In this document: positions 10,653-46,436 of the stretch, piece after piece
Position numbering within the stretch: the first letter of the stretch is position 1
Layout of the letters: every line of letters begins with the position of its first letter
IMG/VR virus record: IMGVR_UViG_3300041411_000085
Span: 1-64,000 of that record
From: a virus
Direction: 5' to 3' (one strand)
DNA length: 64,000 nucleotides
Position numbers and translations under genes: made by a program
Notes under the pieces: model-generated
What the model saw: the letters and a program-made list of their open reading frames with translations, nothing else
What the model was told of the DNA's origin: nothing
Databases searched by the model: none

Positions 10653-10841
10653 TTAAACACCATTTAAAATACTTTCAATCTCTTCAAAACAGATTGTCCT
10701 ATGTCCTGCACCATCATCACACCTAGTGATGAGTCCATACTCTTTGTTTTCAAGCGCATCCAAAAGAAATGCAAGCCTTTCAGAGTCTTTGATTAGAGCA
10801 TCTAGCTCGCGCTTGAATTTTACTGCGGTATGCTTGTTCAT
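10653..10841 (-). CDS. Hypothetical protein
   Basis: 62 aa, coupled to the upstream gene by an ATGA overlap. Confidence 0.6.
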   Translation of the reverse strand: MNKHTAVKFKRELDALIKDSERLAFLLDALENKEYGLITRCDDGAGHRTICFEEIESILNGV

Positions 10842-12199
10842 TTCTTATCCACCTTACAAAATGTTGTATCTCCCAATACTGTTTTCCATGCACTAAACAT
10901 GGCCTCTCTCAAATCATCTTCAGCAGAAGCCTTAACCAAACAACTATCGTGATAAGCCAGCACTGTATGTCCTTTAGATCCCATTGCACCAACAATACGC
11001 ATCATAATCTTACTGTCAATGTTTTGTAGGGTGATACCGGCATCTGAAAAGAAGTGCTCTGCAATGAAATCGTTATGTGTTTGCACAGCTTCAAGTACAG
11101 ATGAGTAATCGATATTGCCAACCATTGCATAAAACTCTTGATCTTCAATACTGTTCTGAGCACGATCAATCTTAACTTTATTGCCTAGTGTCCAAGCTGC
11201 ACTATTCTTGTCGTTAGAATTCATACCAATAAGAATAGCTAACTTAGCTAACTGCCGTACAGGATTATGAACCTTACCTGTAACAGCCTCCCATTGTTCT
11301 TTCATACGACCATCTACTTTGATAAATGAAAGATCAGCACCGTAAGGAGAGAAATCTTCGCCCATTACATCAAAGATACTAAATCCATCTGTATTATACA
11401 TCATCTGATAGCAGATACTTGGGTGGATAGATGAGTAATCTAATTCCACAACTGGTTCACCATCAATCATTAGAGAAGATGCTCGGATGTGCTGCGGTAG
11501 GAGTTGAACACCACCGCCTAGTGTATAGAGACGACCACCACTTTCTAGATCACCACTAAAGATACGGCGGTATGCAACATCAGCAATCGGACGACCATCA
11601 AATGTAATTGATGCACCAGCCAACATATCATTCATACTCTTAACCTCACTCTTAATATCTTTAAATCCTTTATGACCTCGTGTTGGCATCATTTCTTTTG
11701 TCTCACGATCCCGAATGATAGCTAGATCATTATCTTCAAGCTCTTTCCATAGGTTATAAGAAGTATTAACATTTTCCCACATATCTCCTGTCCTCTTTTT
11801 AAATATCATACACGAAGGCACAGATTCATCTGGAACCAGAACTCCTTTATTCATCTTCCAAGATTTTACATACCCTTTATAAAGGTCAATATAACCCTTG
11901 GCTTCAAGGAAGTCAACAAGAGATTTAACTTTCCTGTATCCAATGCCTTGCTTTGACTTAGTGTATGCGTGTATGTCTAGACTGAAGACAATACCTTTAG
12001 CACTCTTCTTGACAGCGCGAGCTGAGTTAGACACCCACCACCTCACTGCATCTTCCCATTTGTAGTTGGTATGCTCCATCACTTGATCTACTATCTTCTT
12101 ATAGTATTTAGATTCATGGTAATAGATATAACTTCTTACACACCCAAGGTTAACAGAGTAAGCTTGATGTTCTGTCATGTTACTTAATTCATAGATCAA
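10838..12199 (-). CDS. PolA/T7-RNAP superfamily polymerase-like protein (TV-Pol-like), copy 1
   Basis: YRRIF..GGRLY, motif A VELDYSSIHP, motif B RQLAKL, LQNIDS and motif C YHDSCLV; winged-helix-like N-terminus. Confidence 0.7.
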   Translation of the reverse strand: MIYELSNMTEHQAYSVNLGCVRSYIYYHESKYYKKIVDQVMEHTNYKWEDAVRWWVSNSARAVKKSAKGIVFSLDIHAYTKSKQGIGYRKVKSLVDFLEAKGYIDLYKGYVKSWKMNKGVLVPDESVPSCMIFKKRTGDMWENVNTSYNLWKELEDNDLAIIRDRETKEMMPTRGHKGFKDIKSEVKSMNDMLAGASITFDGRPIADVAYRRIFSGDLESGGRLYTLGGGVQLLPQHIRASSLMIDGEPVVELDYSSIHPSICYQMMYNTDGFSIFDVMGEDFSPYGADLSFIKVDGRMKEQWEAVTGKVHNPVRQLAKLAILIGMNSNDKNSAAWTLGNKVKIDRAQNSIEDQEFYAMVGNIDYSSVLEAVQTHNDFIAEHFFSDAGITLQNIDSKIMMRIVGAMGSKGHTVLAYHDSCLVKASAEDDLREAMFSAWKTVLGDTTFCKVDKK

Positions 12200-12270
12200 T
12201 CACTTGTTCTCCTTATGATCGGTTGTAGTTAGTAGTAGATAGATGTATTGTATTACATGTTCTCCTCTAC

Positions 12271-12293
12271 AGCCCACGGTTTATAAGGGTTTG
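12271..12293. promoter_or_regulatory. Pseudo-palindromic motif upstream of polymerase-like copy 1 (candidate origin or operator)
   Basis: GTTTATAAGGGTTTG (12279-12293) matches 46422-46436 at 14 of 15 positions; related to 29825-29845. Confidence 0.5.
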
Positions 12294-12346
12294 TCCTCAT
12301 TCTACTCGGTACTTTCTCTGTTTTTTCTACATAATTCATTCCCACA

Positions 12347-12450
12347 AGATTACACGCCTCCAAGCTCCCTGTCAACCCCCTCACAACATTATTTTATATT
12401 CCAAACAAATCTATTCACCGCTTGCAATCCATCCTCGGCAGTGCTATCCT
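12347..12450. promoter_or_regulatory. Divergent sigma70-type promoter pair
   Basis: Minus strand TTGACA-17-TAATCT (12347-12375) and plus strand TTGCAA-17-TATCCT (12422-12450), at the strand switch. Confidence 0.75.
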
Positions 12451-12476
12451 TTGTACAACAAATAGGAGAGACCCAA

Positions 12477-15069
12477 ATGCCCATCATCCACCTACACACC
12501 TACCGTCTCCTGAAACAAATCCTTGAACATGCAGATAAGGTTGTGATAGTGTCGGTAACACGAGAGGATGGGAAGCAAATGAAATACACGTATGTGAAAA
12601 CTGAGAACTGAGAAGGGAGAGAAGAGATGAACGATTTTACAGTGAAGGAAATGATAGAGTTGCTTAAGTCACTTCCGCAAGATGCTCGTGTGTTCCAGCA
12701 TAGTGGGGAACAAGGTGGTATATTATCTATAGTGTCAAAGAACGGTAACAAGCAGTGGTCTGTGTTGAAGGAAGGTAAGCTGAAATGACCCATACCTTTC
12801 GCGACAAAGACATAGACGAAATCTTCGTCATCAAATCCCCTAAAAACACTCTCCTCCACATAAGCTATCTTGGCCCAACAGAGGAGACGTTCTACACAAG
12901 GGCTGATCTAGTGAGATTGCTTGATATTATTGATGGGAAGGAAGAAGGAGTGATGAGGGTATGACATTAAAATATAAGAGCCAACGAATCGTGCAGAATG
13001 TTCTTGTAGATGCATCTTGTGACAGGTGTAATGAACCGCTGAGTGTGGACGACGGCAAGATTCAAGATGGAGGGACTTTCAGACACAGTTTCTCATGGCA
13101 GAATCCTAAATACCCTTGTGGTGATATGGTTGCTACTGTCTGCGAACCTTGCCTGATTGAAATTTTTCATTTTGGCACTTTTACCAAGGACCAATATTGA
13201 TGCTGTATCTTATCCTTTGGTTTATATGTTCCGTATCGGCATTTTATCTCCTCAAAAACTACGTCTCATCCAACCTGCGACAGATGGGTATCCCAGACGC
13301 TAGCATTGCTACAGCTATGAGAAATGCCGCTAAGAAAGACAAAACAATCGATCCAATGCACGACTGTCCAGACCATATTGCTTCAGCTTTGTTTTGGACG
13401 ATTCTTTTAGTGTATAATCTCTTATGTTGGCCGTTCTGTTTGTGTACACTTGTTTACTGGAAGATTAACAAACAAGACTTTTCAGATTTTAGGAGTTAAT
13501 TATGGAACTAGAAGAACTTAAGGGGGTTGTAGCTCTTATTGATGAGATAGAATTTATGCAACGGTTAATGAAACAGAAGGACGATAGAATCAAATACCTT
13601 GAAGATTTGAAAGGTATTGCCGAGAAGACGTCAGCCGAGAAAGCAATAATTAAAATACACAAAGAGTTGGTTGAGAAGAATAACAGCCTAACAGATGCGG
13701 CAAGAGACTTATTGAATGATCTTGATGACAGAGCTTATGACTCAGAACCAAACCCCGGTCAGAGGAATTGTATGGAAAGGCTTCGTGATGTCTTGCATTA
13801 CCCAGAAGACCTTGACTTGCTAACAACATGCGGAACATTCAACACAAAAAATTGCATTTCTAGTGAAGACTTGTGCAAACTACTTAAACCTAAAGGAGAT
13901 AAATAATTGACTATCAACAAGCAATCCTATTTAGACGTTCTAACTGAAGTCCAACAATCTCTGACACAAATAGACACCCTAGAATCAGCAGCTATCTCAG
14001 CAGATGCTGCCTATGGATTTGAAGAAACTTTCATTCAAATTGAAAATAATCTGTCAAGCATCCAAGCCTGGGCACAACAGAAAGTAGATGAGGCTAATCA
14101 AGAGGAAGCTGAGCTTGCAGTGATGAATAATTTCCTTGCTGAATTGAAGGCTGTGTTTGATAAATACAGTTCTAGTGTGGAGATCGCTCAGTTTGAGAGT
14201 GGTTACGGAGTTAGTTATGGGGAGCCGGGAGTAGGGTTTGTCTTGTCAGCTAGCCTAAATAATGTAACATCCACCAAAGAGATTAAGAAATCTGTTATTG
14301 TATCGGGAGATTTGGTGTAATATGGAAGACACAATTGATTATAAACAACTTCTCCGTAAGTACATTGAGCATGTTGGTCAAACAGAGGGAACTACCTTCA
14401 TCAGCAAGGTTAATTGGTGTTCGGACATCACATTCAATGATGAAGAGGTGGCTGAGTTGGAACTGTTTCAAAGTTACCCCTATCCACAGGAGCTAAATTA
14501 ATGAAGGAACAGGAGAAAGAGAAGCTTCGGCAGTTGGATAAAGAAGGACTTAGTGGTACTATACAGTCAGTATTGTTAGACCCTAACATTAACCAAGCAC
14601 ACTATGCAGATGTATTGTATTATTTGTTGGTTAAAGGAATTGAGGAGAAGAGTTATTTTGAAAGGGTGGTGAATAATATGATGCGTGTGCTTAAGGCAGA
14701 AGGTTTGCATAAAGATCTTAATGAGTGTTTGGAATTGGAGGAGAAATTGTGAGGGTTATGAAGATGAATAGTATTAATGTCACACTGGATATGACCTATG
14801 ATAAATTTGTAGAACTCTTTGGTCCTGAAAAAGTAACCGCTACACTGTTTGATAAGGTAATTTGGATTAAGGTTAATGGTAATGAAATTAGGATGCAACC
14901 TGAACACTACATTGAGGATAATTCAAGCCTTTATTATCCTAAAGTTCAGGTAATTCTAGTTCCTTGGGTAAACAAAGAAGTGAAAGCAGCAGAAGAATCT
15001 GTAGCTAAAGCTAAGGAAGCGCTGAAGGCTGCCGAGAATGCTTTGAAAGCTGTAAAACAGTCTAAATAA
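12477..15069 (+). other. Cluster of small hypothetical phage genes (e.g. 12961-13200 with CxxC pairs, 13197-13499 membrane protein, 13502-13906, 13907-14320, 14501-14752)
   Basis: Closely packed, translationally coupled ORFs with GGAG/GAGG SDs; no family recognised. Confidence 0.7.
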
Positions 15070-15170
15070 AGCTTGCATAATAGATTGAAGTGTGGGAAGC
15101 TAGAGATGTTGGGAAAGTGGTGAAGCAAATAAAGGTGTGGAAATTTAATTACTGAGAAGGAAATACTAAT

Positions 15171-15974
15171 ATGGCGGGTAAAAGTCGGGCATATCTAACT
15201 GTAGTCGATGACCAAGAAGTACTGGTCCCGAGGAAGAAAACACGGTCCACCCGAAATGGTGGTGTTAAGCCTGAGATTAAGGAGAAGTTTTTGGAGGAAC
15301 GTAATAACCCGCCACCAGTTGTGGCTAAGACTGCAAAACAGAAAGAGTATTTCCGCTTGTTGGAAGACCCTGAAATAAAAGCAATTGTGTGTCTTGGTCT
15401 CCATGGCACGGGTAAGACCTTCTGTGCTGCTGTAGTGGCTGCTGATAAGTTTCGTAAGAACGAAATCAAACAAATTATTGTGGCGCGAGCATATGTTCAA
15501 ACTGGTAAAACATCAGGCTATAAACCCGGCAGCTCCTTGCAGAAATTGTATCCCTACGTGCGGAACGTACTAGATACTATCAAATCGCGTATTGGTGCTG
15601 GAGCATATGAAATTGCACTGAAAGATGGAGAATCTGGTGAAATTCAGGTGCAAGAGGTTGAAAGCATCAGGGGTCGATCTTTTGACCTACCTTCTTACCT
15701 AATAATTGACGAAAGCCAACAGACCACCAAGGAAGAAATGCAGAGTATTGTTACGCGAGTATCAGATAACTGCAAATTGGTGTTATGCGGTGATATTTTG
15801 CAGAAGGATATTCAAGGTGAGTCTGGTCTTGAGTGGTTTATGTCTTTTGCTAAGCGTCATAATTTGAAAGGTGTTGCAGTTATTGACTTCAACTCTCCAG
15901 ACGAGATTGTTCGTGGTGGATTGGTTAAAGATATTGCGATTGGGATGATGAAAGATCGGGCAAATGATTTGTAA
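15171..15974 (+). CDS. phoH: PhoH-family ATPase
   Basis: GLHGTGKT Walker A, GYKPG, RGRSF, IIDESQ, TRV and LCGD..Q.D motifs. Confidence 0.95.
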   Translation: MAGKSRAYLTVVDDQEVLVPRKKTRSTRNGGVKPEIKEKFLEERNNPPPVVAKTAKQKEYFRLLEDPEIKAIVCLGLHGTGKTFCAAVVAADKFRKNEIKQIIVARAYVQTGKTSGYKPGSSLQKLYPYVRNVLDTIKSRIGAGAYEIALKDGESGEIQVQEVESIRGRSFDLPSYLIIDESQQTTKEEMQSIVTRVSDNCKLVLCGDILQKDIQGESGLEWFMSFAKRHNLKGVAVIDFNSPDEIVRGGLVKDIAIGMMKDRANDL

Positions 15975-15982
15975 GGAGAAGT

Positions 15983-16714
15983 ATGAAAGCTATTGATTTA
16001 ACGGGGAAGAAATATAATAGACTTCTTGTAGAAAGTTTCGCGGGTTCTCGTAAGACCGAAGGTGCTGGTCAATCTATACGAACTTGGAATTGTTTGTGTG
16101 ACTGCGGTAATAGGATTGTTGTAGATGGTCATGCCTTGAAGTGTGACAATACGATGAGTTGTGGATGTTATAAACTTGAAGTCACAACAACACATGGTAT
16201 GTGGAAGGATCGATTCTATCAAATATGGGGAGATATGAAAGTTCGCTGTGATTGTGAAACTAATCAGTCTTACTACAGATATGGAGGTCGGGGTATTAGC
16301 TATCAAGAATCTTGGGTATCGTTTGAAGCTTTTAAAGAAGACATGTATTCCAGTTATGAAGATCACCTAACTCTAGAGAGGATTGACGTAAACGGTAATT
16401 ACTCCAAAGAAAATTGCTGCTGGGCCACTAAAGCCGAACAAGCAAGGAATAGAGGTATGGATGCACGTAATAAAACAGGAGTAACTGGTATTAGAACTTG
16501 GATTGATAAAGATACTCAGGTTCTATATTATGTAGCAGAGGCTCAAGGGTTAGATGGTAAAAGGGTGACTAAACACTTTTCAACTGTAAAGTATGGCGAA
16601 GAAGGGGCCTTTAATTTGGCAGTCGCTAAACGAAAAGAGTTTATGAATGTACTAAGTGAAAATGGAATTGAGTACGGCATTAATCACGGTATCCAAAAAG
16701 AGGAATTTGTATGA
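15983..16714 (+). CDS. HNH-type homing endonuclease with AP2-like C-terminus
   Basis: CDCG...SCGC...YGGRGI...TLERIDVNGNY..ENC.WAT..EQARN...NKTGVTG. Confidence 0.8.
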   Translation: MKAIDLTGKKYNRLLVESFAGSRKTEGAGQSIRTWNCLCDCGNRIVVDGHALKCDNTMSCGCYKLEVTTTHGMWKDRFYQIWGDMKVRCDCETNQSYYRYGGRGISYQESWVSFEAFKEDMYSSYEDHLTLERIDVNGNYSKENCCWATKAEQARNRGMDARNKTGVTGIRTWIDKDTQVLYYVAEAQGLDGKRVTKHFSTVKYGEEGAFNLAVAKRKEFMNVLSENGIEYGINHGIQKEEFV

Positions 16715-17481
16715 AACACGAAGAACTGATGCTGTTGCCACAAAAGTCGCGAATTTCCTCCAGTCACAATGGTGGTATGACTCATGTTATTCGGATTCAC
16801 GAAGATATTTCTGAGCCAAGTAATTGGAGCGATGAACTTGATTTGATTAATGGTGCATCCGAACAGGACACAATTGTGCTGGACGTGTGCTCACCGGGTG
16901 GATATCTTGATACAGCAATGCTTTTTCATCGCTCATTGAATAATTGTGCCGCTCACACTGTTGCAATTATTGGCCCTGAGTGTGCAAGTGCTGCGTCGAT
17001 CATTAGTCTTTCGGCTAGGGAATGGATTCTAGACGACACTTCTAGCCTTATGATTCACACCTCAAGTTATTCGCTAGGAGGCAAGGACACCGATATTCTG
17101 GAACATGCAAACTTCTCTCGAGGGCAACTGAAACGACTCTATGAGAAAGTGTATTCGGGCTTCCTAAGTTGCGACGACCTTAGCGACGTAATCAAAGGCA
17201 CCCCGTTCTACTTTAGTGCAGAACAGATTGCAGATCGACTTGATGCACTTACTGAGTACCGTGCAAGTCTTCCTTGTCAGTGTGGTGATCCATCATGCGG
17301 TATCGAGGATGAGAGTGAAATTGAAAAAGGGCAAGAAGACTTCGACGAAATGCCAAGTCTTGCTGAAATCATTGCAGATGCTGTAGAATTGGGTGTAAAG
17401 AAGGCTCTAGCCGCTCGTGATGCTGCTGAAAAGAAAGCATCACGCGCAAAACCTGCAAAAGTAATCGAGAAATCCGAATAA
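16711..17481 (+). CDS. ClpP-like serine protease
   Basis: CSPGG, CASAAS (catalytic Ser) and LMIH motifs. Confidence 0.85.
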   Translation: MKHEELMLLPQKSRISSSHNGGMTHVIRIHEDISEPSNWSDELDLINGASEQDTIVLDVCSPGGYLDTAMLFHRSLNNCAAHTVAIIGPECASAASIISLSAREWILDDTSSLMIHTSSYSLGGKDTDILEHANFSRGQLKRLYEKVYSGFLSCDDLSDVIKGTPFYFSAEQIADRLDALTEYRASLPCQCGDPSCGIEDESEIEKGQEDFDEMPSLAEIIADAVELGVKKALAARDAAEKKASRAKPAKVIEKSE

Positions 17482-17966
17482 TTCGATAGACAAACCAGTG
17501 GAGTGCATGTATTATTGGCTCCACTAACCCAAACACAAAGGAGAGAAATAAATGAAAACTGAAGAAATGTACACTCACGAGAATGAAAGCTTTGAATTCC
17601 GTCAAGGTTATCGTGAAGGCCTTGAAAAAGCCCTAGAACTTGTCACTGACTACATGTCAGACTTGAAAGCAGATAAGAAAATCAATGAAGCTCTTTGGGT
17701 GAGTGTTGCTAAAGAGTGGATTGATGATGAACTTTCTATGTATCAAGTTGGAGACGAAGAATGATTAGTCAATCCGAGATTGAAGAGCTTATCGCAGAAC
17801 AACAAGCTGACCTTGCTGCACAGGAAAAGTCCGAGTCTGATGGGTGGGGATATGATGGAGAAAATGAGACATATCAAATTACAACATATTTCCAAGAAGT
17901 TTGTTTTGATGATCCACAGATGCAATCACATAAAACAGAATTTTCTCTTATCCTTGGTAGAGACTA

Positions 17967-18098
17967 ATGAACTACCACTATGACCTAATCGAACTGGACG
18001 ATTATCAAGAGGATATCCAAGCTATTCAAGAGATTTGTTTTGATGTAGACCCTTATTGGAATATGGAATACGATGTAGAATCTAACTGTATTGATTAA
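17967..18098 (+). CDS. Acidic mini-protein (43 aa)
   Basis: Read by hand: MNYHYDLIELDDYQEDIQAIQEICFDVDPYWNMEYDVESNCID; TAATG coupling to the upstream ORF. Confidence 0.55.
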   Translation: MNYHYDLIELDDYQEDIQAIQEICFDVDPYWNMEYDVESNCID

Positions 18099-18405
18099 GG
18101 AAAATAAAATGTTAGTATTTACTGTTGTAAAAGTTGACTTCGGTCACAAACAAAACATCGGAACACTCTCCACTCTAGAGAAAGCTCAAACATTCCAAGC
18201 TGCATCTGAAGTGGAATTGTTTGATAGTGGTAGTTTGGTGGGTATTAGTTTTTATATTGAAAAGGTACAGGTTCAATGAATTACGAAGAGACTGTTAGTG
18301 AAGGTTTGGAAAGTTCAATGGAATTGTGGTTGATGGGTAATGCGGAAAATGCTGTAGAAACATTTGGAGAAGATATTGTAGCTGCAATTAATGAAGCTCT
18401 AGCTC

Positions 18406-18531
18406 ATGACTGATTATGATTTGTGGTTGGACAAGGATTTAGATGACTATTATGAAAACACAGAAGACTTTGAACCAGAACCAGAATGGGACGGACCATA
18501 TCCAGAGGATGATCATGACTACTGTGATTGA
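18406..18531 (+). CDS. Extremely acidic mini-protein (41 aa)
   Basis: Read by hand: MTDYDLWLDKDLDDYYENTEDFEPEPEWDGPYPEDDHDYCD; overlaps the neighbouring stop and start codons. Confidence 0.5.
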   Translation: MTDYDLWLDKDLDDYYENTEDFEPEPEWDGPYPEDDHDYCD

Positions 18532-18802
18532 TAAACCTAAGAAAGATCCTAAAGTAACCATTGTAGACTTTAATACTTTCACAGACTATGAATTTATTCC
18601 ACCAGCAACATTCTACATCCTTAATGCTATGGGAGACTACGTTTTTGTCCATACTGCATCAAGGATTGTTGCACAAGAGTATATCGATTCTGTATATTCT
18701 AAGGGACGTTATAAAATCGTTGCAAGCAAACTTCAAAAGACAGTTAGTAAGTTGGAGGGTGGCGGATATTCTGTGACTGGTACGGAAACTAGAAAGAAAT
18801 GA
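18515..18802 (+). CDS. Hypothetical protein (probable start MTTVIDKPK)
   Basis: 3' part of track ORF 18443-18802; GAGG SD before the ATG at 18515. Confidence 0.6.
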   Translation: MTTVIDKPKKDPKVTIVDFNTFTDYEFIPPATFYILNAMGDYVFVHTASRIVAQEYIDSVYSKGRYKIVASKLQKTVSKLEGGGYSVTGTETRKK

Positions 18803-28645: not shown

Positions 28646-29752
28646 ATGGAAGAAGAGTGGAAAGAGATACCCGGTTATCCGGGGTATGAAGCTAGCGATA
28701 AAGGTAATGTAAGACAGTTATCTGGTAAACAAGTGTTCCTCCAGATAACAGGTGAGCCTGAATACCACTATGTAAACATTGTAGATGAGTATGGTAACAG
28801 AGTCCTAAGACGTGCTCATGTCATGGTTGCGAAAGCCTTTCTTGAGAATCCATTGAACCTACCAATGGTTGACCATATTGACAGACAGAGGTTTAATAAC
28901 AACCTTGAAAATCTCCGGTGGGTAACTCGTAAAGATAATGCTAGAAATAAAGTTAATACACTCTTTACTGAATATCAAGGAAAACAAAGGGTCTTGGTTG
29001 AGCTTGTAGAGGAAATATTTGAAGATGATTATCTTGCACCATACCAAGCAATCAGGTACAGAGTATCAACTGGTATGGATTTTGATGCTGCCTTGGCATC
29101 TTATCTGTACCTTCTAGAGCACGGAAGGTGTAAGATTAAAGTGGACTGGAATAACGAAGAAGTATTCCTCACAGTTCTTTGTAAGGACTTGAGTAAAGAT
29201 TTCTTTTATGTGAGACAGAGACTTAGAGATGGTTGGTCTATTTGGAATGCTATTTACGATATTCCACACTCCCACAGTTACAGCTTCGAGGTTATTGACT
29301 CAAAAGGTGTTGGCCACTGGTATCAGAATAATGAAATGTTTGAAAAGACACACCCAACTGCAATTGGAATCTGGAAGTCCTTGTTTAGAGAAGGTAAGAC
29401 ATTAGATGAAATATTAGCATATGATGGTAAAGACTATTTAAGACGAACTGTAGGTAAGCACACAGGAACTTTAAAAGAGCTGTGTAAGCTTTATGGGAAG
29501 ACAGAATCCTCAGTAGAAACTAGAGTAGGCAAAGGCATGTCTTTAGAGGATGCTTTAACCTCCCCTCCTGAAAGGATCAAGAAAGTCACTATTGATGGTG
29601 TATCAGGGAGCCCTAAATATTGGTATGAGCATTACGGGCTTGTTTACAAGACTGTGAAACATAAGAAAGATAGGTTGAAGTGTTCCTTTGAGGATATCTT
29701 GAGATACTTTGATGTAGATTTAACTGGTAAAGTTATTTCGTACACAGACTAA
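28646..29752 (+). CDS. NUMOD4-HNH homing endonuclease with repeated C-terminal helical modules
   Basis: EEWKEIPGYPGYEASDKGNVR (NUMOD4), H..VA.AF...VDHID....NN..ENLRW....N (HNH), and repeated R...G.(S/D)...A(L/I) units. Confidence 0.9.
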   Translation: MEEEWKEIPGYPGYEASDKGNVRQLSGKQVFLQITGEPEYHYVNIVDEYGNRVLRRAHVMVAKAFLENPLNLPMVDHIDRQRFNNNLENLRWVTRKDNARNKVNTLFTEYQGKQRVLVELVEEIFEDDYLAPYQAIRYRVSTGMDFDAALASYLYLLEHGRCKIKVDWNNEEVFLTVLCKDLSKDFFYVRQRLRDGWSIWNAIYDIPHSHSYSFEVIDSKGVGHWYQNNEMFEKTHPTAIGIWKSLFREGKTLDEILAYDGKDYLRRTVGKHTGTLKELCKLYGKTESSVETRVGKGMSLEDALTSPPERIKKVTIDGVSGSPKYWYEHYGLVYKTVKHKKDRLKCSFEDILRYFDVDLTGKVISYTD

Positions 29753-32135: not shown

Positions 32136-33101
32136 TTATATGTGGTTGGGAATGTTTTCGATGGTTTGGTCATGATGCTGATTCCTGGTGTATTCGTCTT
32201 GGGTTAGGTCCATTGTGAGGCTTTCACCATCTTGTGTCAACATTTCTTGTGAGATATTTTTAAGGATGTGAGCTACGGCATCCACGGTCCAGGCATTCCC
32301 AATGCTTTTGTACCGTTCTGATGTACGAATACAATCTGTGTAGTTATCTGGCAATGTCTGTAAACGTTCGTATTCAACAGGCGTCAATCGTGTAATTTGA
32401 TCACCACGAGTGACATAGTTGCTATTCCAAGAACCATCAGAACGAGCTGTCAAGCAATTAGCTTTAATTGGATTCAATACAGCATAACGCTTATCAAAAC
32501 ACTGTTGCCCTTTTTCACTAGTGACCCAACGAGCACGACCCGGTGTAAGGATAGATAGTTCTGGAATACCTGGTTGTAAGATGTCTTTAAGATTAATACC
32601 TAAATCCTGTGGTTGTTCAATGTTAGGAATGTTGGTCCAATACAAACGATCACGTTTTTGTGCACTGACCAAAGAGGAGTTAATACGAATAGGTTCAACT
32701 CCTAGTACTTTACTAATTTCATCAATAGCTTTTTTATTACCACTAACATTCTCAAGCATCCACCACTTTGGGTTTAGTTCATTTTTAATACGAACGTATT
32801 CCCAAAACAAACCACTCTTACCCTCAAGACCTGTGCCATCCCCCAGGTTTGAAATCGATTGGCAAGGTGTGCCTCCAACCAGCAAGTCAATTGCCCCGAG
32901 TTTGGATGTGTCTAGTGCACACATATCGCCAACTTGTTTAATATTAGGCCAATTGGACTGGCTAACTTTAATTGCATGCTTGTCGATCTCGGATGCGTAG
33001 TAATTATTTACGATAATACCTGCACGTTGCAATGCAACAGCAGCACAAGAGATTCCATCACAAACTGACAAAACATTAATACCTTTATTCATAACACCCA
33101 C
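32136..33101 (-). CDS. DNA cytosine-C5 methyltransferase
   Basis: LSVCDGI (motif I), SEID, GGTPCQ (IV), LENV (VI), QKRDRLYW (VIII), RLTPVEYERLQ (IX) and IGNAW (X). Confidence 0.95.
   Translation of the reverse strand: MGVMNKGINVLSVCDGISCAAVALQRAGIIVNNYYASEIDKHAIKVSQSNWPNIKQVGDMCALDTSKLGAIDLLVGGTPCQSISNLGDGTGLEGKSGLFWEYVRIKNELNPKWWMLENVSGNKKAIDEISKVLGVEPIRINSSLVSAQKRDRLYWTNIPNIEQPQDLGINLKDILQPGIPELSILTPGRARWVTSEKGQQCFDKRYAVLNPIKANCLTARSDGSWNSNYVTRGDQITRLTPVEYERLQTLPDNYTDCIRTSERYKSIGNAWTVDAVAHILKNISQEMLTQDGESLTMDLTQDEYTRNQHHDQTIENIPNHI
32212..32240 (-). promoter_or_regulatory. sigma70-type promoter inside the 3' end of the methyltransferase gene
   Basis: TTGACA-17-CACAAT; spacer resembles that of 31882-31910. 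Confidence 0.7.
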
Positions 33102-37595: not shown

Positions 37596-37624
37596 ATTAT
37601 GGACACCTTTCAAAGTCCTGTCAA
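37596..37624 (-). promoter_or_regulatory. sigma70-type promoter
   Basis: TTGACA-17-CATAAT. Confidence 0.75.
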
Positions 37625-37877
37625 CAACTATTTTCAGATTCTTTCTCTAACCTGTATTGACACCACGAGCTGTGGCCTTCAAGACTATAGTTAATTTCAG
37701 GTACAGCCCTCTTGCAATGGGAGCACATCCAGTAAGGATTGTCACCACCAATAGGCTCTTTAGGGAAGTCCTCAAACCATGTTTGTTTTGGTGTTTCTGC
37801 GGCTGCCACCTTAGGTTTGAATTTCTTGAATGACTTGGACATTTTGAAATCCTTTTGTCGTTGGGTTATGTGTGCCA

Positions 37878-37912
37878 ATTCTAAGACAACAAAAAGCCCC
37901 GGTCAAGGGGCT
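37878..37912 (-). promoter_or_regulatory. Fused terminator/promoter
   Basis: AGCCCC-TTGACC-GGGGCT plus TTTT. The -35 box is exactly the hairpin loop, 17 bp from TAGAAT. Confidence 0.8.
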
Positions 37913-38663
37913 GAGGTAAATCTTTTCACTTATTCATTAGGTTTTAACACCTGTTTACAGCTTTCAGAGATAACCAGCAGCTTCGAACGATTCTCAATGC
38001 TGCTTTGACTGATCACTTCAGTTATCTCTACAATCCCCTCAACCACCTCAACAAATTTCTCCAGCCTAGTTTTGAGGAAGTCGATTTCAGCCTGTTGCAA
38101 ATCAAACAGTTCGTTCATTAGCTCAATACGTTCTTGTGTGTCGTCCGTAATGGGTAACGTTGTGGCTTCTTCCTTAGCAGCCTCTACCAAAGGTTCTTCC
38201 CTATCTTCCATCAAACCAGATACTAAGGGTGTTACTTTGTAGTTTACGTCCTCAATTGCCCAAGCCTCAACCTCTTTCATAAACAAGCTGCGGCCATCTC
38301 TCTCAATCAAAAACCCTTTAACTTTTGAGTTAGTCATTCTAGTTGCTCCTTGCGATAGAACGAAAAGCTTCAGCTAATGTTGGCTTAACTCTTGTTTTCC
38401 CGTCAAGGCGGGTAATCCGATACCCCTCAGAACATTTCACAATTATTCCAATGAAGTTATTACTTGCATCAAAAACTCGGCGGGTTCCGTTCCCAGCTAC
38501 TGGGGAAAACGAGCCTTTTACAGATTGGGCACTTGCCATGATAATCACCTTAAGATTTATTAGGTAATAAAACCTAGAGAACCATTTCACTAGGCTTGCC
38601 TCCCTGATATCGTCAGATGGCCTACTACTTAATCGCCGTCTCTTGTTGCTCCTTCATGTTCAA

Positions 38664-38692
38664 AGGATAGCGAAAGGCTTACACGAATGCAA
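38664..38692 (-). promoter_or_regulatory. sigma70-type promoter
   Basis: TTGCAT-17-TATCCT. Confidence 0.65.
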
Positions 38693-39104
38693 GCAACTTC
38701 TGAAAAGATTTTACGAATTGTAAATTAACCCTTTAGAAACAAGCACTTGCTCAATACTCCCAAGGCTGATAACATAAGCTTTAGCCTGATCTGTAGGGTA
38801 TGCAACATCGAAATCAGCATCCTCAGCAAACCAAAGGTGGCTGTCTAGAAACCCTTCCAGTGTGCTAACAGGCAGATTTGAATAAGCTAGACAGTCCATT
38901 AATGCTTCGTTGTGTACACCTTCTACTTTCAGCGAGATCAGTGTGGCCTTGATGCTGTTTTCCTGATTGTTCATTTTAGATCCCCATCTAGTTAATGTTG
39001 TGTTACAGATTCAGAGCCCGTGTAACGTTGGTGAGAGGCTCTGTTAAGGTGATGATACGCTTGTTGGATCCGATAGCAAGGGGTGTTTCACGAAATTATC
39101 ACAT

Positions 39105-39653
39105 TTATTTTCCAACGATTCCTTGCAATTTCTCAGCTTGTTTCTGAAGATCCGCGATTTTTTGCACCAGAATGTCAAGCTGTTTTTGCTCTTCTGACTC
39201 AATTTCTGGAAACTCTACAGAATCTATGACTGTCTTAAATGTAAGCTTAATTTCTTTAGCTGTGTCATGTTTAAGATCAATGCTGTCTGTGTGACAGAAC
39301 GCGCCTCGCTTGTACGGGCTCAGTTTGAGGTAAAGCGAGCTTGTGTAACGTACAGAAGCGTCTTCATGGTGTTGCCACACAAACCCCTGATCAAACAGCC
39401 AGTTCTGCACGAGCCTAGAGATTTCATGAGTTGGTGTGCAGATAAACCACCTATCTTTCTTAATATCAAACACAGCCACATCCTGATTAATAATTTCTAC
39501 ATCACCTTTGTCAAAATAACGGTTTACACCCGGACTACCCACCTCTTTATAATCCCAACTCCCATTCGTATTTTCAACGGCTTCAAAGACCTCACCAACC
39601 TTATCCGCATACCAGTAGCTAGCAAATGTAGCCTTAATCACTTTAACTTTCAT
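39105..39653 (-). CDS. Hypothetical protein
   Basis: 182 aa with an AGGAGAG SD and a C-terminal coiled coil. Confidence 0.7.
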   Translation of the reverse strand: MKVKVIKATFASYWYADKVGEVFEAVENTNGSWDYKEVGSPGVNRYFDKGDVEIINQDVAVFDIKKDRWFICTPTHEISRLVQNWLFDQGFVWQHHEDASVRYTSSLYLKLSPYKRGAFCHTDSIDLKHDTAKEIKLTFKTVIDSVEFPEIESEEQKQLDILVQKIADLQKQAEKLQGIVGK

Positions 39654-40552
39654 CTTTCTCTCCTAAACCATTAATTTAAATTATCAAAACACCAGCTATT
39701 TAAAACATCCCAGTTATTTTATGCCACTGTTCTTCTACAAACGCAATGCCTCTGATGTATTCCTTGTCATCCCAAGTCGTATTAATCCACATACTAATGT
39801 GTTCTTCCAAAGCTGTGACACCTAGATTGCAAGCATAGATACAGTCAGAAAGCGCCTCTTGATAACAATCTGATTCTGTCGATTCATTTAAGACAATTTG
39901 CAAGCGTTCTTTTAGTAGATCAAGAGGGTTCATTTGGTTTGTTCCCATTCGTACTGTTCAAGCATCTGTTGTTGGGTAACTTCAATATGAGAGAGCCACT
40001 TTTCACTCCAAACTTCTTTGTCGGACTCTTCAAGATGATGCTGACATCATGCAACAGATCCATAATGGTTTGCATATCAATGTCGTTCATTCAAGTTTCC
40101 TCAATTTCCATCCGTTTAACAATCTACCCAAACAATACCCCAATTTCCCTCACAAAACAACCCTTTCATGCGGCTTTTTCGTATGTTTAAGCCACGTTAG
40201 GGCTTAGTTGGTACAGCACTAGGCTGAGCGATATAGTCTGTTTAATTCCACTCCAAAACACTATTCTTCAATGTCTGCATCAATTCTTTATAATCCATCT
40301 CACCGGGCTGTTGAAATTTCTTCAAGGATTCTTCCAACCACAAAGCTTCCACACCATCACATTCTATGAAATCCACAAGAGGGGTGTCTAGAATGTAGGC
40401 GTGTCCTTCATTTGTGTAGATTGTTTGCCCTGTAAGTCTACACACAAAATCTTCGTTAACTTCGATAATGGCTTCGATAATATAACAGCCATTGTGTTCC
40501 GATAAGAGTTTACTTTGGAGGATTACTTTTTCGCCTATGCTGAAGAGGTGGT

Positions 40553-40762
40553 TCATGATTTATCCTCTTTAGTGAGCACCCGTTGACTTACGTTGGATAT
40601 CAGGTATCCGCTCAATATAGTCATAGTAAGAATCTGGAAATTCTCAACAGGAAGCTTGCCGATGTACAGGAATAGAAACAAGAGCATCTGCACAACGGCA
40701 GATAGCAGAAACTTCCTAGAAATGTATTTGATATTCATTATGCAAGTTTCTCCCAATACCAA
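40553..40762 (-). CDS. Small two-helix membrane protein (holin-like topology)
   Basis: SRKF followed by two hydrophobic segments and a charged tail. Confidence 0.45.
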   Translation of the reverse strand: MVLGETCIMNIKYISRKFLLSAVVQMLLFLFLYIGKLPVENFQILTMTILSGYLISNVSQRVLTKEDKS

Positions 40763-41943
40763 CTAATAAGTTTTGATTCAGACATCGGCTCTGTTTTATC
40801 CAAAAGATCGGTGATTGCTTTCATACACTCCTGCCCATAAAGAAACCTAGCTTGTTTAAGCTCTTCACGGGCAACCACTAATTCAAGTGGGCTGTAATCA
40901 AGAGACGAATCAGCCTCTTTGTATTGCTTTTCTGCATGCTGGAGACGTTCTAGCAGTTCGGTAAGGTGGTTCATAGGGTACACCCTTGTTGGCTCTCCAG
41001 CTGGTCAATTTTATCCAACAAGGCATGGGCAAGTTTATCACCTACAAGATCAGATGTTCTGGCTGTCCAAGGTTCTCCATTCCTGTACGCCCATAGGATA
41101 TATGTTTCCTCGCAGCGTTCAAGTCTGTATTTACCATCACCAACTTCATAAACCCTTTTCATTTCTGTACCCCAATAATCCTAGTCGTACGAGCTACACA
41201 TTCCCACCCATCAAAATCTAGGAAATGATAACCTGAAGCATTACTCCACACAAGCAGAGTTTTATCTTTAATAGATTGATTTGTGTACTCTTCAAAATCT
41301 TTAATGTTATTCATTTCACCAAACCCCTTGCAAACTCCATCGCATCACTCACATTTCCAAATGTCTTAGCAGTGTTGTTAAAGATTACTGTCCATTGATT
41401 ATCGCGTTTAAAGGGGAGTACACCAATGGAGTTCATGAGGGCTAGTTCATGTGAGGCATTCATTTTATATCTCCTTTCATAGCAACATCAATTGCTTTAG
41501 TGATATGAACTTCTGAGGATTCTGTGTTCCCCGTTTCACAGTAAAAGTCTTTCCATGAATCGTTCAGATCTTCCCAAGGAATCAAACAATTCTTAACGAA
41601 AGCTTCCCAGCGTTCAGAGTTTTGAATCTGTTCGTCGGATACTTTGCGACTAACTACAGCCTTTTTCTTAGGTACGCTCATGATAGATCCTCAATCTCTT
41701 TTAAGAAGTCTTCTTTGGTCAGTTCATACACATGACCGCCTTTACACAAGGTAAAATCTTCAAAAGATTCTGTGCATTGATAAATCGTATACTCGTCATC
41801 CATAAAGTTAAGGTGTTCAGTGATCCACACCCAAAAGAACCCGTCTGGATATTGTTTGAGGGTAAATCCCTTAGAAATCAATAACTCCTTCATAACACTC
41901 TCTCCTAAATTCCTGTGATGTATTGCTGTCTTTTGATAGCCGT

Positions 41944-41972
41944 ATTGTCTCTGTTTTGGTACGGGCTGTCAA
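41944..41972 (-). promoter_or_regulatory. sigma70-type promoter
   Basis: TTGACA-17-GACAAT. Confidence 0.65.
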
Positions 41973-43157
41973 GCGGGTTTTACAGAATTATCTACAAACC
42001 ATTTACAGCCGTCATTGGGACTTTTGCAAGCTACGCACATCACCAAATACGCTTGGTACTTTGGCAGAGATTCCTGTGTGAATCTTGTGCAGGTTGACCG
42101 TCTGTCACAATCTGTTCCGTGGCATTTTACCAGATTTGTCACACTCTAACTCCTTCAGGAATCTCACTAAGAAATTGAGGATAGCCCCCATGATACTCAA
42201 CCACATTCTCAGTATAATCTCCATTCACTTCAAAAGACTTAGCCTCTTGGATGTGATGACTATTGATCAAGTCAAAGATGTCATGTGTAGGGATGCTGTG
42301 AGCTTCACAATACAAATCATTATCAAGATATAAACCCTCCCAGTCACCAGAACTACACTTGACTAGCGTGATGTTTTTATGTGTGATCATTTTAAGTCCT
42401 CAAATACATTATCTGGCACTATAGGTTTTTCAGTAATCAACACCCGGAAATTATCATCAGACAAATAGCTCCAACCACTACCTTCAATCCACTCGTCCGG
42501 TGCAGTTCCTCGATAATAGTTTTGCACAACAGATTGATAGGGTTGACGAACGGCTGTAGACACCCAACCTTTCCAGACAATCCAACAGTGTCCGTGGAAC
42601 TTTTCAGGAAGCTCGCTTGGTTTAATCCAATTCACTGTTCTTCTCCCAAATCAAATTCAAGCGCTTCAATAATATTTGTAATCTCATCTGTCACAGACCA
42701 GTCATATTCCAATTCTTTCTCCAACAAGTGTTTAGCATTTTGGGAGGAGGGTGATAGTGTTGAGAATTGTTTGTTTACGTTGGATCATACCCACCCTCCT
42801 TTGATTAACAAATAAGTCCACTTAGTTACCAGTACAGGCCAGAACGCAAACAACTTCAAGGTCCCTAAAGCGGAGATATTAAAGAACATTCGCCCTATGA
42901 TAGCAATGATTGTACCTGTCCATAAATATAATACAACAAATGAAATAGTCATTGTTTAAGTTCCGTATCAGGACGTGCTGTCCATTGCCATTCTTTACAG
43001 TTCTCTTGCCAAGCCTCTTCAAACCAATCGTTAGTATTCTCAAGACACGCCCAATACTTCCCATCACCTTCATCTTTGTAGAACCATGCTGCACAGACAA
43101 GTCCTGTAGCCGGTTGATACCATTGTGCTTCTTCTGGCGCTTTGTTCCAATCGATAT

Positions 43158-43544
43158 TCATTTCTCATCTCCTCTCTTACTAAACGTATGCACAACTACA
43201 AGTTTCTCTTCAGAAACACAGTCTACATCATATGCGTAAGGAATCCAATCGATTGCTTCTGGTTCACCATGTTTTCCGCCACCATGCCAGTATGTGAACC
43301 CAACCCAATCACCGTTGGGACACTGAACAGCTACAGCCTCAGATTCATAGTGTCGAGAATAGTCACAAGGGAGTCCTGTAGAAATTCCTGAACAACGAAT
43401 CTCTGACTTAGCATCTTGCAAGCAATCGGCTTCGTCCCAAAAAATTTCAATATCATCTTCAGACATATTTTTAGGAAGCTTAATCTCATCCCATTCAGCT
43501 TGTAGGGCAAGGATTGCGTATTTCAGTTTGTATTCTGGTTTCAT
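43158..43544 (-). CDS. Hypothetical phage protein
   Basis: 128 aa acidic ORF with SRHYES...WVGFTYWHGGGKHGEP; coupled to both neighbours. Confidence 0.7.
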   Translation of the reverse strand: MKPEYKLKYAILALQAEWDEIKLPKNMSEDDIEIFWDEADCLQDAKSEIRCSGISTGLPCDYSRHYESEAVAVQCPNGDWVGFTYWHGGGKHGEPEAIDWIPYAYDVDCVSEEKLVVVHTFSKRGDEK

Positions 43545-45061
43545 TTAATATCTCCAGTAATTGGGCCAAACGATTCAAACCCACCAACACCTAAAACACA
43601 GTCGAAGTAATCGCTACCTGTTCCTGTGTATGTTGGTTGTTTCAGTTCATCTAGTCGTTCATGTACACGGTCTAGTAGTTTCTTGAGTGATAGGTTTTCT
43701 CTAACTTGAAGTTCATACGCCTCAAATAGTTCTTCGTAGTCTTCACGTTGATACCACCAACCACTTTGATCAACGTAAGTTCCATAACCATCGCCTACTG
43801 TCCAGCAATCAGCTTTTTCAAGTTGTTTCATTCTCCAAACCCCCGAAATTCATTAACCAAAACATAACATTTACCGGTTCCCGACACGTCGCTTTTCTCC
43901 ACACCAATCACGCAGACATGCATCCCCTTACCTAGATCATCAGGACACTTTCCAACACGAATCACTAGCTCTTTTCCCGCCAAGTCTTCCCATTTGAAGA
44001 TTGATTTATCTAGGGTGTCTTTGGTGAATAGTGATGTCATCAGAAAACATCCTCTTCCTCATAAACCACGTTGATTCCTTTACCATACTCCTTGTAGTAA
44101 CCTTTCGGGCATTTGGAATATGAATATTCTTTCCAGTCTGTAATGGTTAGCACACGCTCAGGGTAGGCTTCAATTGTAAACTTATTTCCTTCACGAATAC
44201 CATACCAAGCACCATTGCAAACGTAATACTTGCCTGTTGATTGCTCAATTACACATAGCAGATTAGCTTCCTTTGAAAACATATAAACGTCTTTCATTTA
44301 ATCCTCTCCTTAGCAACCCAGACAAGTATCTCCACAGCCATCTCCTGTTGATCACTAAACTCATAGCTTCCGAAGTATTTGTAAGCTGTCTGCTCAATAG
44401 TCCATTGTATCTCTTCCGTAGTGAAGTGTATAGCACCCTTTTGCTCAGCACTCCAAGATGTACGTTCCATGTAGAATTGATTGTATGTCCAAGTGTCGAA
44501 TATCATTCATCTAACTCCTTAACAAACTCTATCAATCGCTGTACATCTTCTCTTGATAGGACTTTACGAGCCAGCCACCAAACACTTCTGCACGTTGGTG
44601 ATAGGCATCAATTTGTTCCCATTCCATTAGATTTGCTCCACTTCAAACTCTGCAATACCACACAGACAACGGCCGATAGATTTTAAGTATTTCTGAATAT
44701 CTTCTAGTGCATTGTCTGCACACCATGAGGATTCAGTCAAATGAAAATCAACCATACTTTCATCAAAATCATCTGGATATTCAATCTCATACTCTACAGT
44801 CATTTTAATCTTAAATTTATTCATCAATACCTCTCCTTAACTCTGTAATAAGGCTTCTTAACTTCCTTCACAGGCATAGCATGCCAACTTGTATCTTCTG
44901 AATATTCATCAACGATGCAGATATCCGGTGCAATACCACCATACGCATCATCCTTTCCAATATACACAACCTCATGACCATCTGAAATGATCTGGTCAAT
45001 GACGAGTTGTTGTCTAGGGTCCATGTCTCCGATTACTGCGATGATCATTTTATCTCTCCTT

Positions 45062-46381
45062 TCACGCCAAGATTTTACTTTCTTGGAGCACATTAGCATC
45101 CTTCCAAGACATTTTCAAGGGGATTAATGATGCAATACCAAATTCCTCCCTAAAAGCGTCACCCATAGCATTCTCCAAGAGGCCCACGTCAGACATTCTG
45201 ACCACAAAACTGTCATGGATTGGCAGGATTGGCTTCATTTCATCTACAAATTTCTCAATTACTCGTTGAGCGAGGTACGAATCTGCGTTCTGTAGTGCTA
45301 GCCCAAACGAATCATCCCGGCAATAGCAAGGAATAAAGTCAGGAGTCATACTGTAAATGTGTTCGCGGGCTTTCTTACCAGTGTTTAGGCTCTTATCAAT
45401 GCTCCAACCTTGAGATTTAAATTTAGTAATCTCTTTGTTGATTGCACGATCAGCGCTATCTTCAGTTTTGGAGTTAAACAGAATGTTAATAGACAATTTA
45501 ATCAGTTCACGATGGTCATCATTCTGTAACCGCTCAGGTAGAATATCCATGTACACGTCAAGCGGTAGGTTCTCCATACTGATCTGTTCCATCAAGCTGG
45601 CAAGCCTGTAGTGAAGATTAGAGAAATCAATTTCCACAACCTGTTCACCATTGATAGTGATATCAAGGCGTGCCTTAGTCTTCTTGTGTTTAATCTTCAA
45701 AGCGTCAGAATGAAAGTAACGCCCACCGTGTTCAAAGTCTTTATTAAAGATACGAGAGTAGATGTTAGTCATAACATTACCTTCGCCATCTTTAATATCA
45801 TGCAATTCATTAATACGGTTAAGTTTCTCTACAACCTTACGCGCAGCTTTGATATTCTTATTATCTTGATAGTCAATAGCTTTACCATACTCGTTACGGA
45901 GGATGATTGTTTGAAGGCTGGCATTGTAAGCAGCAATAGCACTCTGAACCTCTTCATCTTTAGAACAAAATTCAGCAACAAAGGCTTCAGATGGTGTGAT
46001 GTAAGACATGATTCTCTTTTCCTTATCTATATGTGCTTTGCCAATGAAATTGTGAATATATCCTATTTCTTCAAGCACTGCAATACATTTCATCAGACGA
46101 TGGGCTGTTATTCCCCGTCTGTCATACTTAGTTTTGATTGGTGAGTGGTTGACCTTATCTCTTGAGTATAGAAGATTCTCATTCTTCTTAATGCAAGCAA
46201 TCAGATTCATAACCACTACACCACTTAATTCCTTATCTACAATAGCTTCTATATGTCTAAGCTTATTAACTACTGACTTAGATAGATTAATACTGTAGGT
46301 AAGCAATCTACTCCTTGTATTCTTCTCTTCTCCTTCCTCTTCTATCACTATTCTACTCCTTCCTCTTCCTCTTCTGTTCAT
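45062..46381 (-). CDS. PolA/T7-RNAP superfamily polymerase-like protein (TV-Pol-like), copy 2; true start may be the TTG after AGGAG near 46306
   Basis: YSRIF..GGRYF, motif A VEIDFSNLHY, motif B RELIKL, LQNADS and motif C PIHDSFVV; paralogue of 10838-12199. Confidence 0.7.
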   Translation of the reverse strand: MNRRGRGRSRIVIEEEGEEKNTRSRLLTYSINLSKSVVNKLRHIEAIVDKELSGVVVMNLIACIKKNENLLYSRDKVNHSPIKTKYDRRGITAHRLMKCIAVLEEIGYIHNFIGKAHIDKEKRIMSYITPSEAFVAEFCSKDEEVQSAIAAYNASLQTIILRNEYGKAIDYQDNKNIKAARKVVEKLNRINELHDIKDGEGNVMTNIYSRIFNKDFEHGGRYFHSDALKIKHKKTKARLDITINGEQVVEIDFSNLHYRLASLMEQISMENLPLDVYMDILPERLQNDDHRELIKLSINILFNSKTEDSADRAINKEITKFKSQGWSIDKSLNTGKKAREHIYSMTPDFIPCYCRDDSFGLALQNADSYLAQRVIEKFVDEMKPILPIHDSFVVRMSDVGLLENAMGDAFREEFGIASLIPLKMSWKDANVLQESKILA

Positions 46382-46413
46382 ATAAGTAATTTAGTACTAC
46401 AAAACATAGGTTT

Positions 46414-46436
46414 GAGTCAATGTTTATAGGGGTTTG
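46414..46436. promoter_or_regulatory. Motif upstream of polymerase-like copy 2
   Basis: GTTTATAGGGGTTTG, in the same orientation relative to its gene as the copy at 12279-12293. Confidence 0.5.

Follow-up and report, generated by a model that had tools for sequence, protein, structure and literature searches.

The divPolA2 family was described by Yutin, Tolstoy, Mutz, Wolf, Krupovic and Koonin (2024, Virol J 21:200; PMC11348598) in 110 barbaviruses that also encode a B-family DNA polymerase (PolB), sometimes as two or three paralogs in one genome, co-occurring with the regular PolB. According to the account given there, AlphaFold models of these proteins show an active palm without a homologous thumb or exonuclease, together with a globular domain at the N-terminus that matches no known type; DNA polymerases are the top structural matches, and a resemblance to T7-type RNA polymerases is also reported. 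The TV-Pol family, described by Iyer, Abhiman and Aravind (2008; PMC2579912), has a minimal family-A core, and a subset of its members carries an extra N-terminal domain and adjoins integrase, resolvase or transposase genes; the TV-Pol of Ma-LMM01 is described beside transposase genes. Among the enzymes covered by these sources, CcPol-MP of SCCmec is the only tested one of this general kind, a proven DNA polymerase and deoxynucleoside triphosphate (dNTP)-using primase whose synthesis begins at the origin of its element (Bebel et al. 2020, PMC7581432). Here, we analyze two genes and their upstream leaders in a 64,000-nucleotide stretch of viral DNA (the window), which represents the first 64 kb of the 87,003-bp IMG/VR virus record IMGVR_UViG_3300041411_000085 (completeness rating 99%). 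Both genes are members of the family described in 2008 and 2024. The reading that we favor overall, with a probability of roughly 60%, is that they are diverged divPolA2 paralogs carried as cassette-like early genes, and that words in their leaders are candidate cis-regulatory sites. The two genes are as follows.

10838..12199, minus strand: divPolA2 paralog 1 (gene 1), 453 aa, TTG start, with a predicted N-terminal globular, possibly winged-helix, domain and a minimal family-A palm and fingers; catalytic motifs at D254 (motif A), R315/K319 (motif B) and H417-D418-S419 (motif C).
45062..46381, minus strand: divPolA2 paralog 2 (gene 2), 439 aa, with motifs EIDFSNLH, RELIK and IHDSF.

Family membership is supported by several searches. 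The two proteins share 25% identity over 397 columns (BLASTP, E 2e-13), and both match phrog_4756, annotated as “unknown function” (E 1e-81 for gene 1 and 1e-54 for gene 2). The original prediction had proposed two paralogs with intact-looking motifs A, B and C, and all of the peptides it quoted are present (VVELDYSSIHP and VVEIDFSNLHY; RQLAK and RELIK; YHDS and IHDSF). Our family profile gave a single match in MG592441.1, namely the coding sequence AUR84708.1 (E 7.4e-32, positions 39-447 of 448), and AUR84708 is the exemplar that was modelled for divPolA2 (PMC11348598). Since this is the sole match in the exemplar genome, and 115 of the 241 phage records found by tblastn are Rheinheimera Barba phages, the membership of both paralogs in divPolA2 is settled. 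The window's proteins resemble the published family in length (about 440-450 aa), in their motifs A, B and C, in giving no exonuclease match, and in being accompanied by a PolB elsewhere in the genome, a variable neighborhood and more than one paralog. The protein family and its multiple paralogs per genome are already in print, and the presence of two paralogs is a general feature.

The family is very large. Named phage carriers infect Rheinheimera, Vibrio (including the cholera phage ICP1), Aeromonas, Pseudoalteromonas and Shewanella, along with one Pseudomonas phage, and a profile search with a threshold of E 1e-3 retrieved 10,323 cluster representatives (50% identity), or 4,070 at 1e-30. 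ICP1 and the Pseudomonas phage vB_PsaM_M1 are cultivable carriers. It also occurs in soil phages and in bacterial integrative elements. We located 31 divPolA2-related loci in bacterial genomes, and among the six of these that were scanned for neighbors, four have a tyrosine integrase on the same strand at most 2 kb upstream. No Pfam or NCBIfam model matched any family member tested, and neither paralog received a functional name from Pfam, NCBIfam or PHROGs. Our literature search found no biochemical test of any divPolA2 protein and no paper on the ICP1 member, gp102/ORF100.

Residue conservation identifies the catalytic core. In an alignment of 31 relatives, N190, G222, R223, R239, E252, D254, H259, R315, K319, L391, D395, L414, H417, D418 and S419 are invariant, and these columns span motifs A (ELDYSxIH), B (RxxxK) and C (HDS) as well as the GGR and LQxxDS motifs; D254, R315, K319 and D418 are also invariant in an alignment of 63 sequences. 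Motifs A and C are separated by 164 residues, a PolA-like spacing. Like the TV-Pols, the proteins have a minimal family-A core with a beta-hairpin Arg (R239), two catalytic Asp (D254 and D418) and the RxxxK of the fingers (R315-K319). As all catalytic residues are intact, both paralogs are probably active enzymes. Neither gave an exonuclease match in Pfam, and the protein length fits an exonuclease-less form. Motif A carries an invariant His in divPolA2 where PolI and CcPol carry a steric-gate Glu (E174 in CcPol), and motif B has an Asn at what we take to be the Tyr position. The winged-helix-like N-terminus of the original prediction is retained here as a possibility, with weak Pfam matches to winged helix-turn-helix models (E 0.05-0.15) and to a PadR-like PDB chain (E 0.067); this signal differs from the 2024 description, which calls the N-terminal domain unlike known domains (PMC11348598).

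The fold assignment depends on profile comparisons. Single-sequence searches of the PDB returned nothing relevant, and in the ESM Atlas the whole protein found unnamed clusters only, while the N-terminal domain found nothing. When the 31-sequence profile was compared with the PDB, it matched 14 distinct sequences, all of them DNA polymerase I (Taq and relatives) at weak E-values of 0.25-2.6, and the alignment pairs GGRLY..QLLP..R..ELDYSxIH with TGRLSS..LQNIP..R..LDYSQIELR. This PolA signal was lost with a looser 63-sequence MAFFT alignment. A family alignment of 262 sequences, built with hmmalign, was then compared by hhalign with a PolA set of 13 sequences from ten bacterial genomes plus T7, which produced one collinear alignment of 316 columns (P 1.2e-3, probability 19%) covering motifs A, B and C together with the pre-A and Q..D motifs. 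The match to the group of gp030 of the Microcystis phage Ma-LMM01 was better, with 350 collinear columns, P 3.7e-5 and a probability of 71%; the family hidden Markov model scores E 0.007 in the Ma-LMM01 genome, and both groups have an Asp-x4-His in motif A. Because gp030 adjoins two transposase genes, we infer, from these neighbors and not from an identifier, that it is the TV-Pol that Iyer et al. described for Ma-LMM01. On these profiles the family is predicted to consist of minimal enzymes of the PolA/T7 RNA polymerase superfamily related to TV-Pol through a remote link, and the original assignment to mini PolA/T7-like polymerases of the TV-Pol type was right in kind.

The comparison with described enzymes also reveals differences. 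Bacterial relatives of divPolA2 sit by integrases, as do TV-Pols with an N-terminal domain, but this linkage is not seen in the phage itself; neither a fused nor a neighboring D5-like helicase, as known from TV-Pols, is present here. CcPol-MP is likewise an exonuclease-less family-A polymerase, encoded on a mobile element and starting DNA chains near that element's origin (PMC7581432; Rice 2023, PMC10061031), and it makes outdated, for one member, the original statement that TV-Pol activity had not been demonstrated. CcPol is described with a separate OB-fold partner, MP, with a steric-gate Glu plus Phe, and without an N-terminal domain (PMC7581432), whereas the window's paralogs have no conserved partner open reading frame (ORF), a His for the Glu and a fused N-terminal domain.

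The regions upstream of both genes contain a series of conserved or shared words, listed here for gene 1 and then for gene 2.

12221..12257, minus strand: TGTAATAC, then a G-free tract of 35 nt that precedes the AAGGAG Shine-Dalgarno at 12209-12214.
12267..12278, minus strand: gene-1 copy of the wider element, CGTGGGCTGTAG, a single-mismatch version of the CTRYAGGCCAC(G) reverse complement.
12279..12293, minus strand: 15-mer copy 1, CAAACCCTTATAAAC in gene orientation, within about 55 nt of leader that form a conserved block.
12302..12318, minus strand: best-conserved gene-1 leader block, GAGAAAGTACCGAGTAG, whose core is invariant in 11 aligned sequences.
12347..12375, minus strand: candidate sigma-70-like promoter, TTGACA-17 nt-TAATCT, with TTGAC kept in 10 of 11 aligned sequences.
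46382..46456, minus strand: 75-nt gene-2 leader, which travels with gene 2.
46391..46420, minus strand: promoter-like part of the gene-2 leader, a -35-like TTGACT (46415-46420) followed by TGTAGTAC/TACTAA.
46422..46436, minus strand: 15-mer copy 2, CAAACCCCTATAAAC, abutting the -35-like TTGACT and not present in gene-2 orthologs.

The starting observation was that the same 15-nt pattern, GTTTATARGGGTTTG, lies upstream of each gene. It is exact at both of the originally proposed positions and in gene orientation, 80-94 nt before the start codon of gene 1 and 41-55 nt before that of gene 2. In the window, four matches occur at up to two mismatches against 0.27 expected, and a search for a third copy in the whole genome found none. 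When the 200-nt regions upstream of the two genes were aligned locally, nothing better emerged than this 14-of-15 word; of 2000 dinucleotide shuffles, 13 attained its score of 12.5, which places the match modestly above chance. Its conservation was assessed in ten gene-1 orthologs with at least 67% protein identity (an eleventh, L009, was excluded because its sequence is cut too short): eight carry the 15-mer with at most two mismatches, and L008 and L013 retain only CAAACC. None of six gene-2 orthologs (80-89% protein identity) has it; they read CTACAGGCCACGTATTCC at this position, just ahead of the conserved TTGACT. Upstream of 28 more distant homologues, the best match has at least four mismatches. 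The pairing of the two genes with the 15-mer is probably a local feature of this genome, and the co-conservation anticipated upstream of homologues does not hold. The idea of a site-binding polymerase with its cognate site consequently fails for the 15-mer, and it survives in a weaker form through the second element described below. A generic promoter word was rejected as an explanation, since neither the 15-mer nor CGTGGSCTGTAG nor the paired CTRYAG arms recur throughout the genome.

The rest of the leader architecture differs between the genes. The ~55-nt block of gene 1 that contains the 15-mer lies downstream of both the TTGACA-17-TA.TCT site, which a consensus promoter scan did not call because of its weak second hexamer, and the better-conserved GAGAAAGTACCGAGTAG. 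The GTA(A/G)TAC words that were predicted between motif and gene are found at both loci, with TGTAATAC at 12250-12257, 21 nt after the 15-mer, and TGTAGTAC at 46394-46401, 20 nt after it; the strand-biased tract predicted alongside them is clear for gene 1 (G-free from 12221 to 12255) and short for gene 2. Gene 2 has no Shine-Dalgarno in 46382-46420, where 33 nt separate the -35-like TTGACT from the ATG, a distance that is 11 nt shorter in its orthologs; this arrangement suggests that the gene-2 leader transcript is very short or absent. A conserved RNA structure in the window's leaders was rejected: the RNAalifold consensus of 11 gene-1 leaders came to -0.89 kcal/mol, one of its 14 pairs being compensatory, folding of 25 individual leaders (z -0.5 to -4.4) revealed no common structure, and Rfam gave no gathering-score match in the window and, at 12150-12550, just a chance microRNA match (E 8.6). 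Leaders of a different type occur at two other loci, L025 and L105, where the same TTTCCTGAGAGCCTT word opens the leader about 60-80 nt upstream of the divPolA2 gene; the L105 leader has a strong hairpin (z -3.8).

A GGCC-centered 11-mer is the better lead for a putative cognate site. At gene-1 orthologs the 15-mer is directly followed by CGTGGCCTGTAG, the reverse complement of CTACAGGCCACG, and the window's form of this word is CGTGGGCTGTAG. We searched ten related complete genomes (895,544 bp, 14 divPolA2 genes) for CTRYAGGCCAC with at most one mismatch. Of 44 matches, 12 fall in the 200 nt immediately upstream of divPolA2 genes, at 12 of the 14, where the density of the remainder would predict about 0.1; the other 32 are at the level of a backwards-pattern control (25). 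Among exact copies, seven of ten are upstream of divPolA2 genes. The 11-mer occurs in both orientations and across three paralog lineages, and its presence in both orientations is more in keeping with a binding site than with a core promoter. Among more distant relatives, it is part of an arm-CCC-loop-GGG-arm arrangement, in which the counterpart of the gene-1 15-mer is the loop together with the remnant of the left arm.

Related non-coding elements were seen at other loci. In L112 (G014:80243-83526), a P-loop (GSGKT) ATPase-like ORF without a homologue in the genome of the window is preceded, at approximately locus positions 2400-2470, by a near-perfect inverted repeat whose arms, of the CTACAGGCC / GGCTGTAG type, are 12 nt apart. 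In L024, L046, L103 and L108, about 80 nt of non-coding sequence that end in a promoter-like word of the GAGATTATGG type are conserved about 100-200 nt upstream of divPolA2 genes from two paralog lineages; this stretch is not found in the window's gene-2 leader.

The genomic context of both genes is variable. The same ten genomes have one divPolA2 copy in six cases and two in four. The 101-aa ORF at 46457-46762 (minus strand), directly upstream of the gene-2 leader, is 92-98% conserved and precedes different divPolA2 variants in L024, L025 and L046, or none. In G014 and G015 its homologue is followed directly by other genes, and similarity with the window breaks off just past the stop codon of this ORF; this junction indicates that gene 2 and its 75-nt leader are an inserted module. 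The region is too mosaic at the DNA level for both borders to be read, and the upstream junction is the readable one. The site just downstream of this ORF looks like a hot spot for cassette exchange. The flanking ORFs are not conserved among relatives, and the two just downstream (62 aa and 91 aa) have no homologue beside the orthologs, leaving no conserved downstream partner; an MP-like or single-stranded DNA-binding-protein-like partner was rejected on the same grounds.

Strand organization and replication genes provide the remaining context. The genome is divided into four strand blocks. The original prediction had placed both genes close to divergent switches. Gene 1 heads a leftward block directly at the 12.2-kb divergent strand switch; gene 2 is the fourth gene inside a leftward block that starts at about 47.3 kb. 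The original prediction also attributed a primase-helicase and a B-family replicase to the phage; a primase-helicase and a PolB-like DNA polymerase were confirmed.

49078-50859: Toprim/DnaB primase-helicase.
50905-52617: PolB-like DNA polymerase, with a PolB-exo Pfam match and B-family-like motifs in the translation.

The forms of these motifs are what we take to be those of B-family enzymes, and phmmer found no match for this protein in the PDB.

Taken as a mechanism, the favored reading would run as follows. Each divPolA2 protein would be a minimal nucleotide polymerase of the family-A type that has no exonuclease and is joined to an N-terminal domain of a DNA-binding type, and would be kin to the TV-Pols of integrative elements. 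Both genes appear to be accessory, cassette-like members of the early region, and gene 2 would move with its own 75-nt leader. At gene 1, the 15-mer is the left part of a larger conserved leader element, the right part of which, CGTGGSCTGTAG, recurs in either orientation before divPolA2 genes of this group of phages. These leader words could be cis-regulatory protein-binding sites on mobile promoter-leader cassettes, possibly operators that the N-terminal domain of the enzyme itself, or else a shared early regulator, would bind. As for the role of the enzyme, the most likely job in our analysis, though one we hold tentatively and at somewhat less than even odds, is that it initiates replication of the phage DNA by making, at a fixed site, a primer or short chain that would then be passed to PolB and the primase-helicase for elongation. 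Apart from analogy, the sole positional support for this comes from ICP1_2006_E, in which a homologue (ICP12006E_102, ORF100) at 58,951-60,618 lies 1.3 kb from a divergent strand switch and the early bidirectional origin is reported from a peak of reads “near the 60 kb position” (PMC7145576; PMC9040626). The integrase-linked bacterial relatives point to element replication as well.

Several observations weigh against the favored reading and its priming role. The ICP1 coincidence is one case, taken from text at 1-kb bins and from a phage engineered to lack part of CRISPR-Cas, with a chance probability of about 5%. With a Toprim primase-helicase already encoded, the phage analyzed here has no obvious need for an extra primase. 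Yutin et al. favor a role as a repair DNA polymerase or an RNA polymerase (PMC11348598). The His in place of the steric-gate Glu and the motif-B Asn mean that the choice between nucleoside triphosphate (NTP) and dNTP substrates is not fixed by sequence. Pfam PF00476 (DNA_pol_A) has no match at E up to 10 in both proteins, the 31 relatives or the genome, and our statements on the fold draw on the models of the 2024 paper and on weak profile statistics. Regarding the cis element, the 11-mer is not found upstream of the window's gene 2, even at three mismatches, nor at one mismatch upstream of the G012 gene and one G017 gene. In G014, a genome without gene 2, the full inverted repeat stands before the P-loop ATPase-like ORF at the same hot spot, so the element is not polymerase-specific. 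Finally, because the orthologs are related, the 12 of 14 genes represent about three or four independent lineages and not 12 events.

Other explanations account for parts of the same evidence. The original prediction saw each paralog as a self-contained origin module, whose N-terminal domain binds its own 15-mer and whose palm primes, with two origins at the divergent switches. The restriction of the 15-mer to the upstream regions of the two paralogs in 87 kb (p ~0.007), the location of both genes near divergent switches, a cumulative GC-skew minimum at 12,522 and the ICP1 coincidence would all agree with it, and CcPol-MP, which primes at its element's origin, is a precedent (PMC7581432). However, the GC skew in the window merely tracks gene direction, most close relatives have one copy, proteins with 25% identity should have different sites instead of the same one, and the 15-mer is missing from all six gene-2 orthologs, whose proteins are 80-89% identical, and reduced to matches with four or more mismatches in the 28 distant homologues; we therefore regard two such modules as unlikely. 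About equally unlikely is that the paralogs are accessory repair, translesion or gap-filling DNA polymerases and that the shared words are pieces of mobile promoter and stem-loop cassettes that shuffle early genes, in the manner of the PeSL elements of T4-type phages, which combine a promoter with a stem-loop. The variable neighborhood and copy number speak for this, as do the insertion of gene 2 with its leader at a hot spot used by other divPolA2 variants, the ATPase cassette with the same inverted repeat at that site in G014 and the TTGACA promoter-like sites that accompany the elements; repair is also among the two roles that the 2024 paper puts forward (PMC11348598). It is countered by the concentration of the 11-mer at divPolA2 genes, by the integrase-linked relatives and by our finding no adjacent lesion-bypass or repair partner genes.

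A further possibility, and the least probable of those considered here, is that the paralogs are miniature single-subunit RNA polymerases, with the upstream words serving as promoters or with an RNA primer made as by T7 or mitochondrial RNA polymerases. The HDSF-type motif C is shared with T7 RNA polymerase, N4 mini-vRNAP and the mitochondrial enzyme, the Glu steric gate is missing, and hairpin-type elements lie upstream in relatives (for example L103, -21 kcal/mol, z -3.5); N4 vRNAP uses hairpin promoters. Against this, the proteins are about half the size of T7-type enzymes and have no identifiable promoter-recognition N-terminal domain or specificity loop. Comparison by hhalign of the family profile with single sequences of T7 DNA polymerase and T7 RNA polymerase was not significant, and for the latter (E 0.08 over 26 columns) motif C was the sole stretch paired. 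The PolA-like spacing of motifs A and C, the occurrence of candidate promoter words once or twice per genome instead of ahead of gene sets, the sigma-70-like TTGACA promoters of the genome and the DNA polymerases that lead the structural matches in the 2024 paper (PMC11348598) also disagree with it.

Our results also allow a bolder extension of the favored reading, which we consider rather improbable, if less so than the three explanations just weighed. In it, divPolA2 would be a third, very widespread replication starter, in which the N-terminal domain recognizes a GGCC-centered inverted repeat or hairpin beside its own gene and the thumb-less palm lays the first primer there; the 15-mer would be a lineage-specific variant of the site, copied between leaders, and the 60-kb theta origin of ICP1 would be such a site. 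If these enzymes do start DNA or RNA chains at defined sites, they would constitute a new initiator class beside the DnaG and AEP primases and, possibly, a compact site-directed polymerase tool. The sections of the 2024 paper's text that describe divPolA2 do not mention the cis elements reported here (PMC11348598), and the window adds defined fragments (12221-12375 and 46391-46456) along with the recurring 11-mer for binding or priming assays.

Other genes of the window were recorded in passing. Two homing/HNH endonuclease genes (phrog_655; NUMOD4 plus HNH_3) are located at 5093-5980 (minus strand) and 28646-29752 (plus strand), one of them directly upstream of the large terminase gene (3585-5093). 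The early leftward block includes a C5 cytosine DNA methyltransferase gene at 32136-33101 (minus strand), and the late genes include one at 7510-8898 (minus strand) for a 462-aa protein with a GDSL lipase/acylhydrolase domain at its C-terminus.

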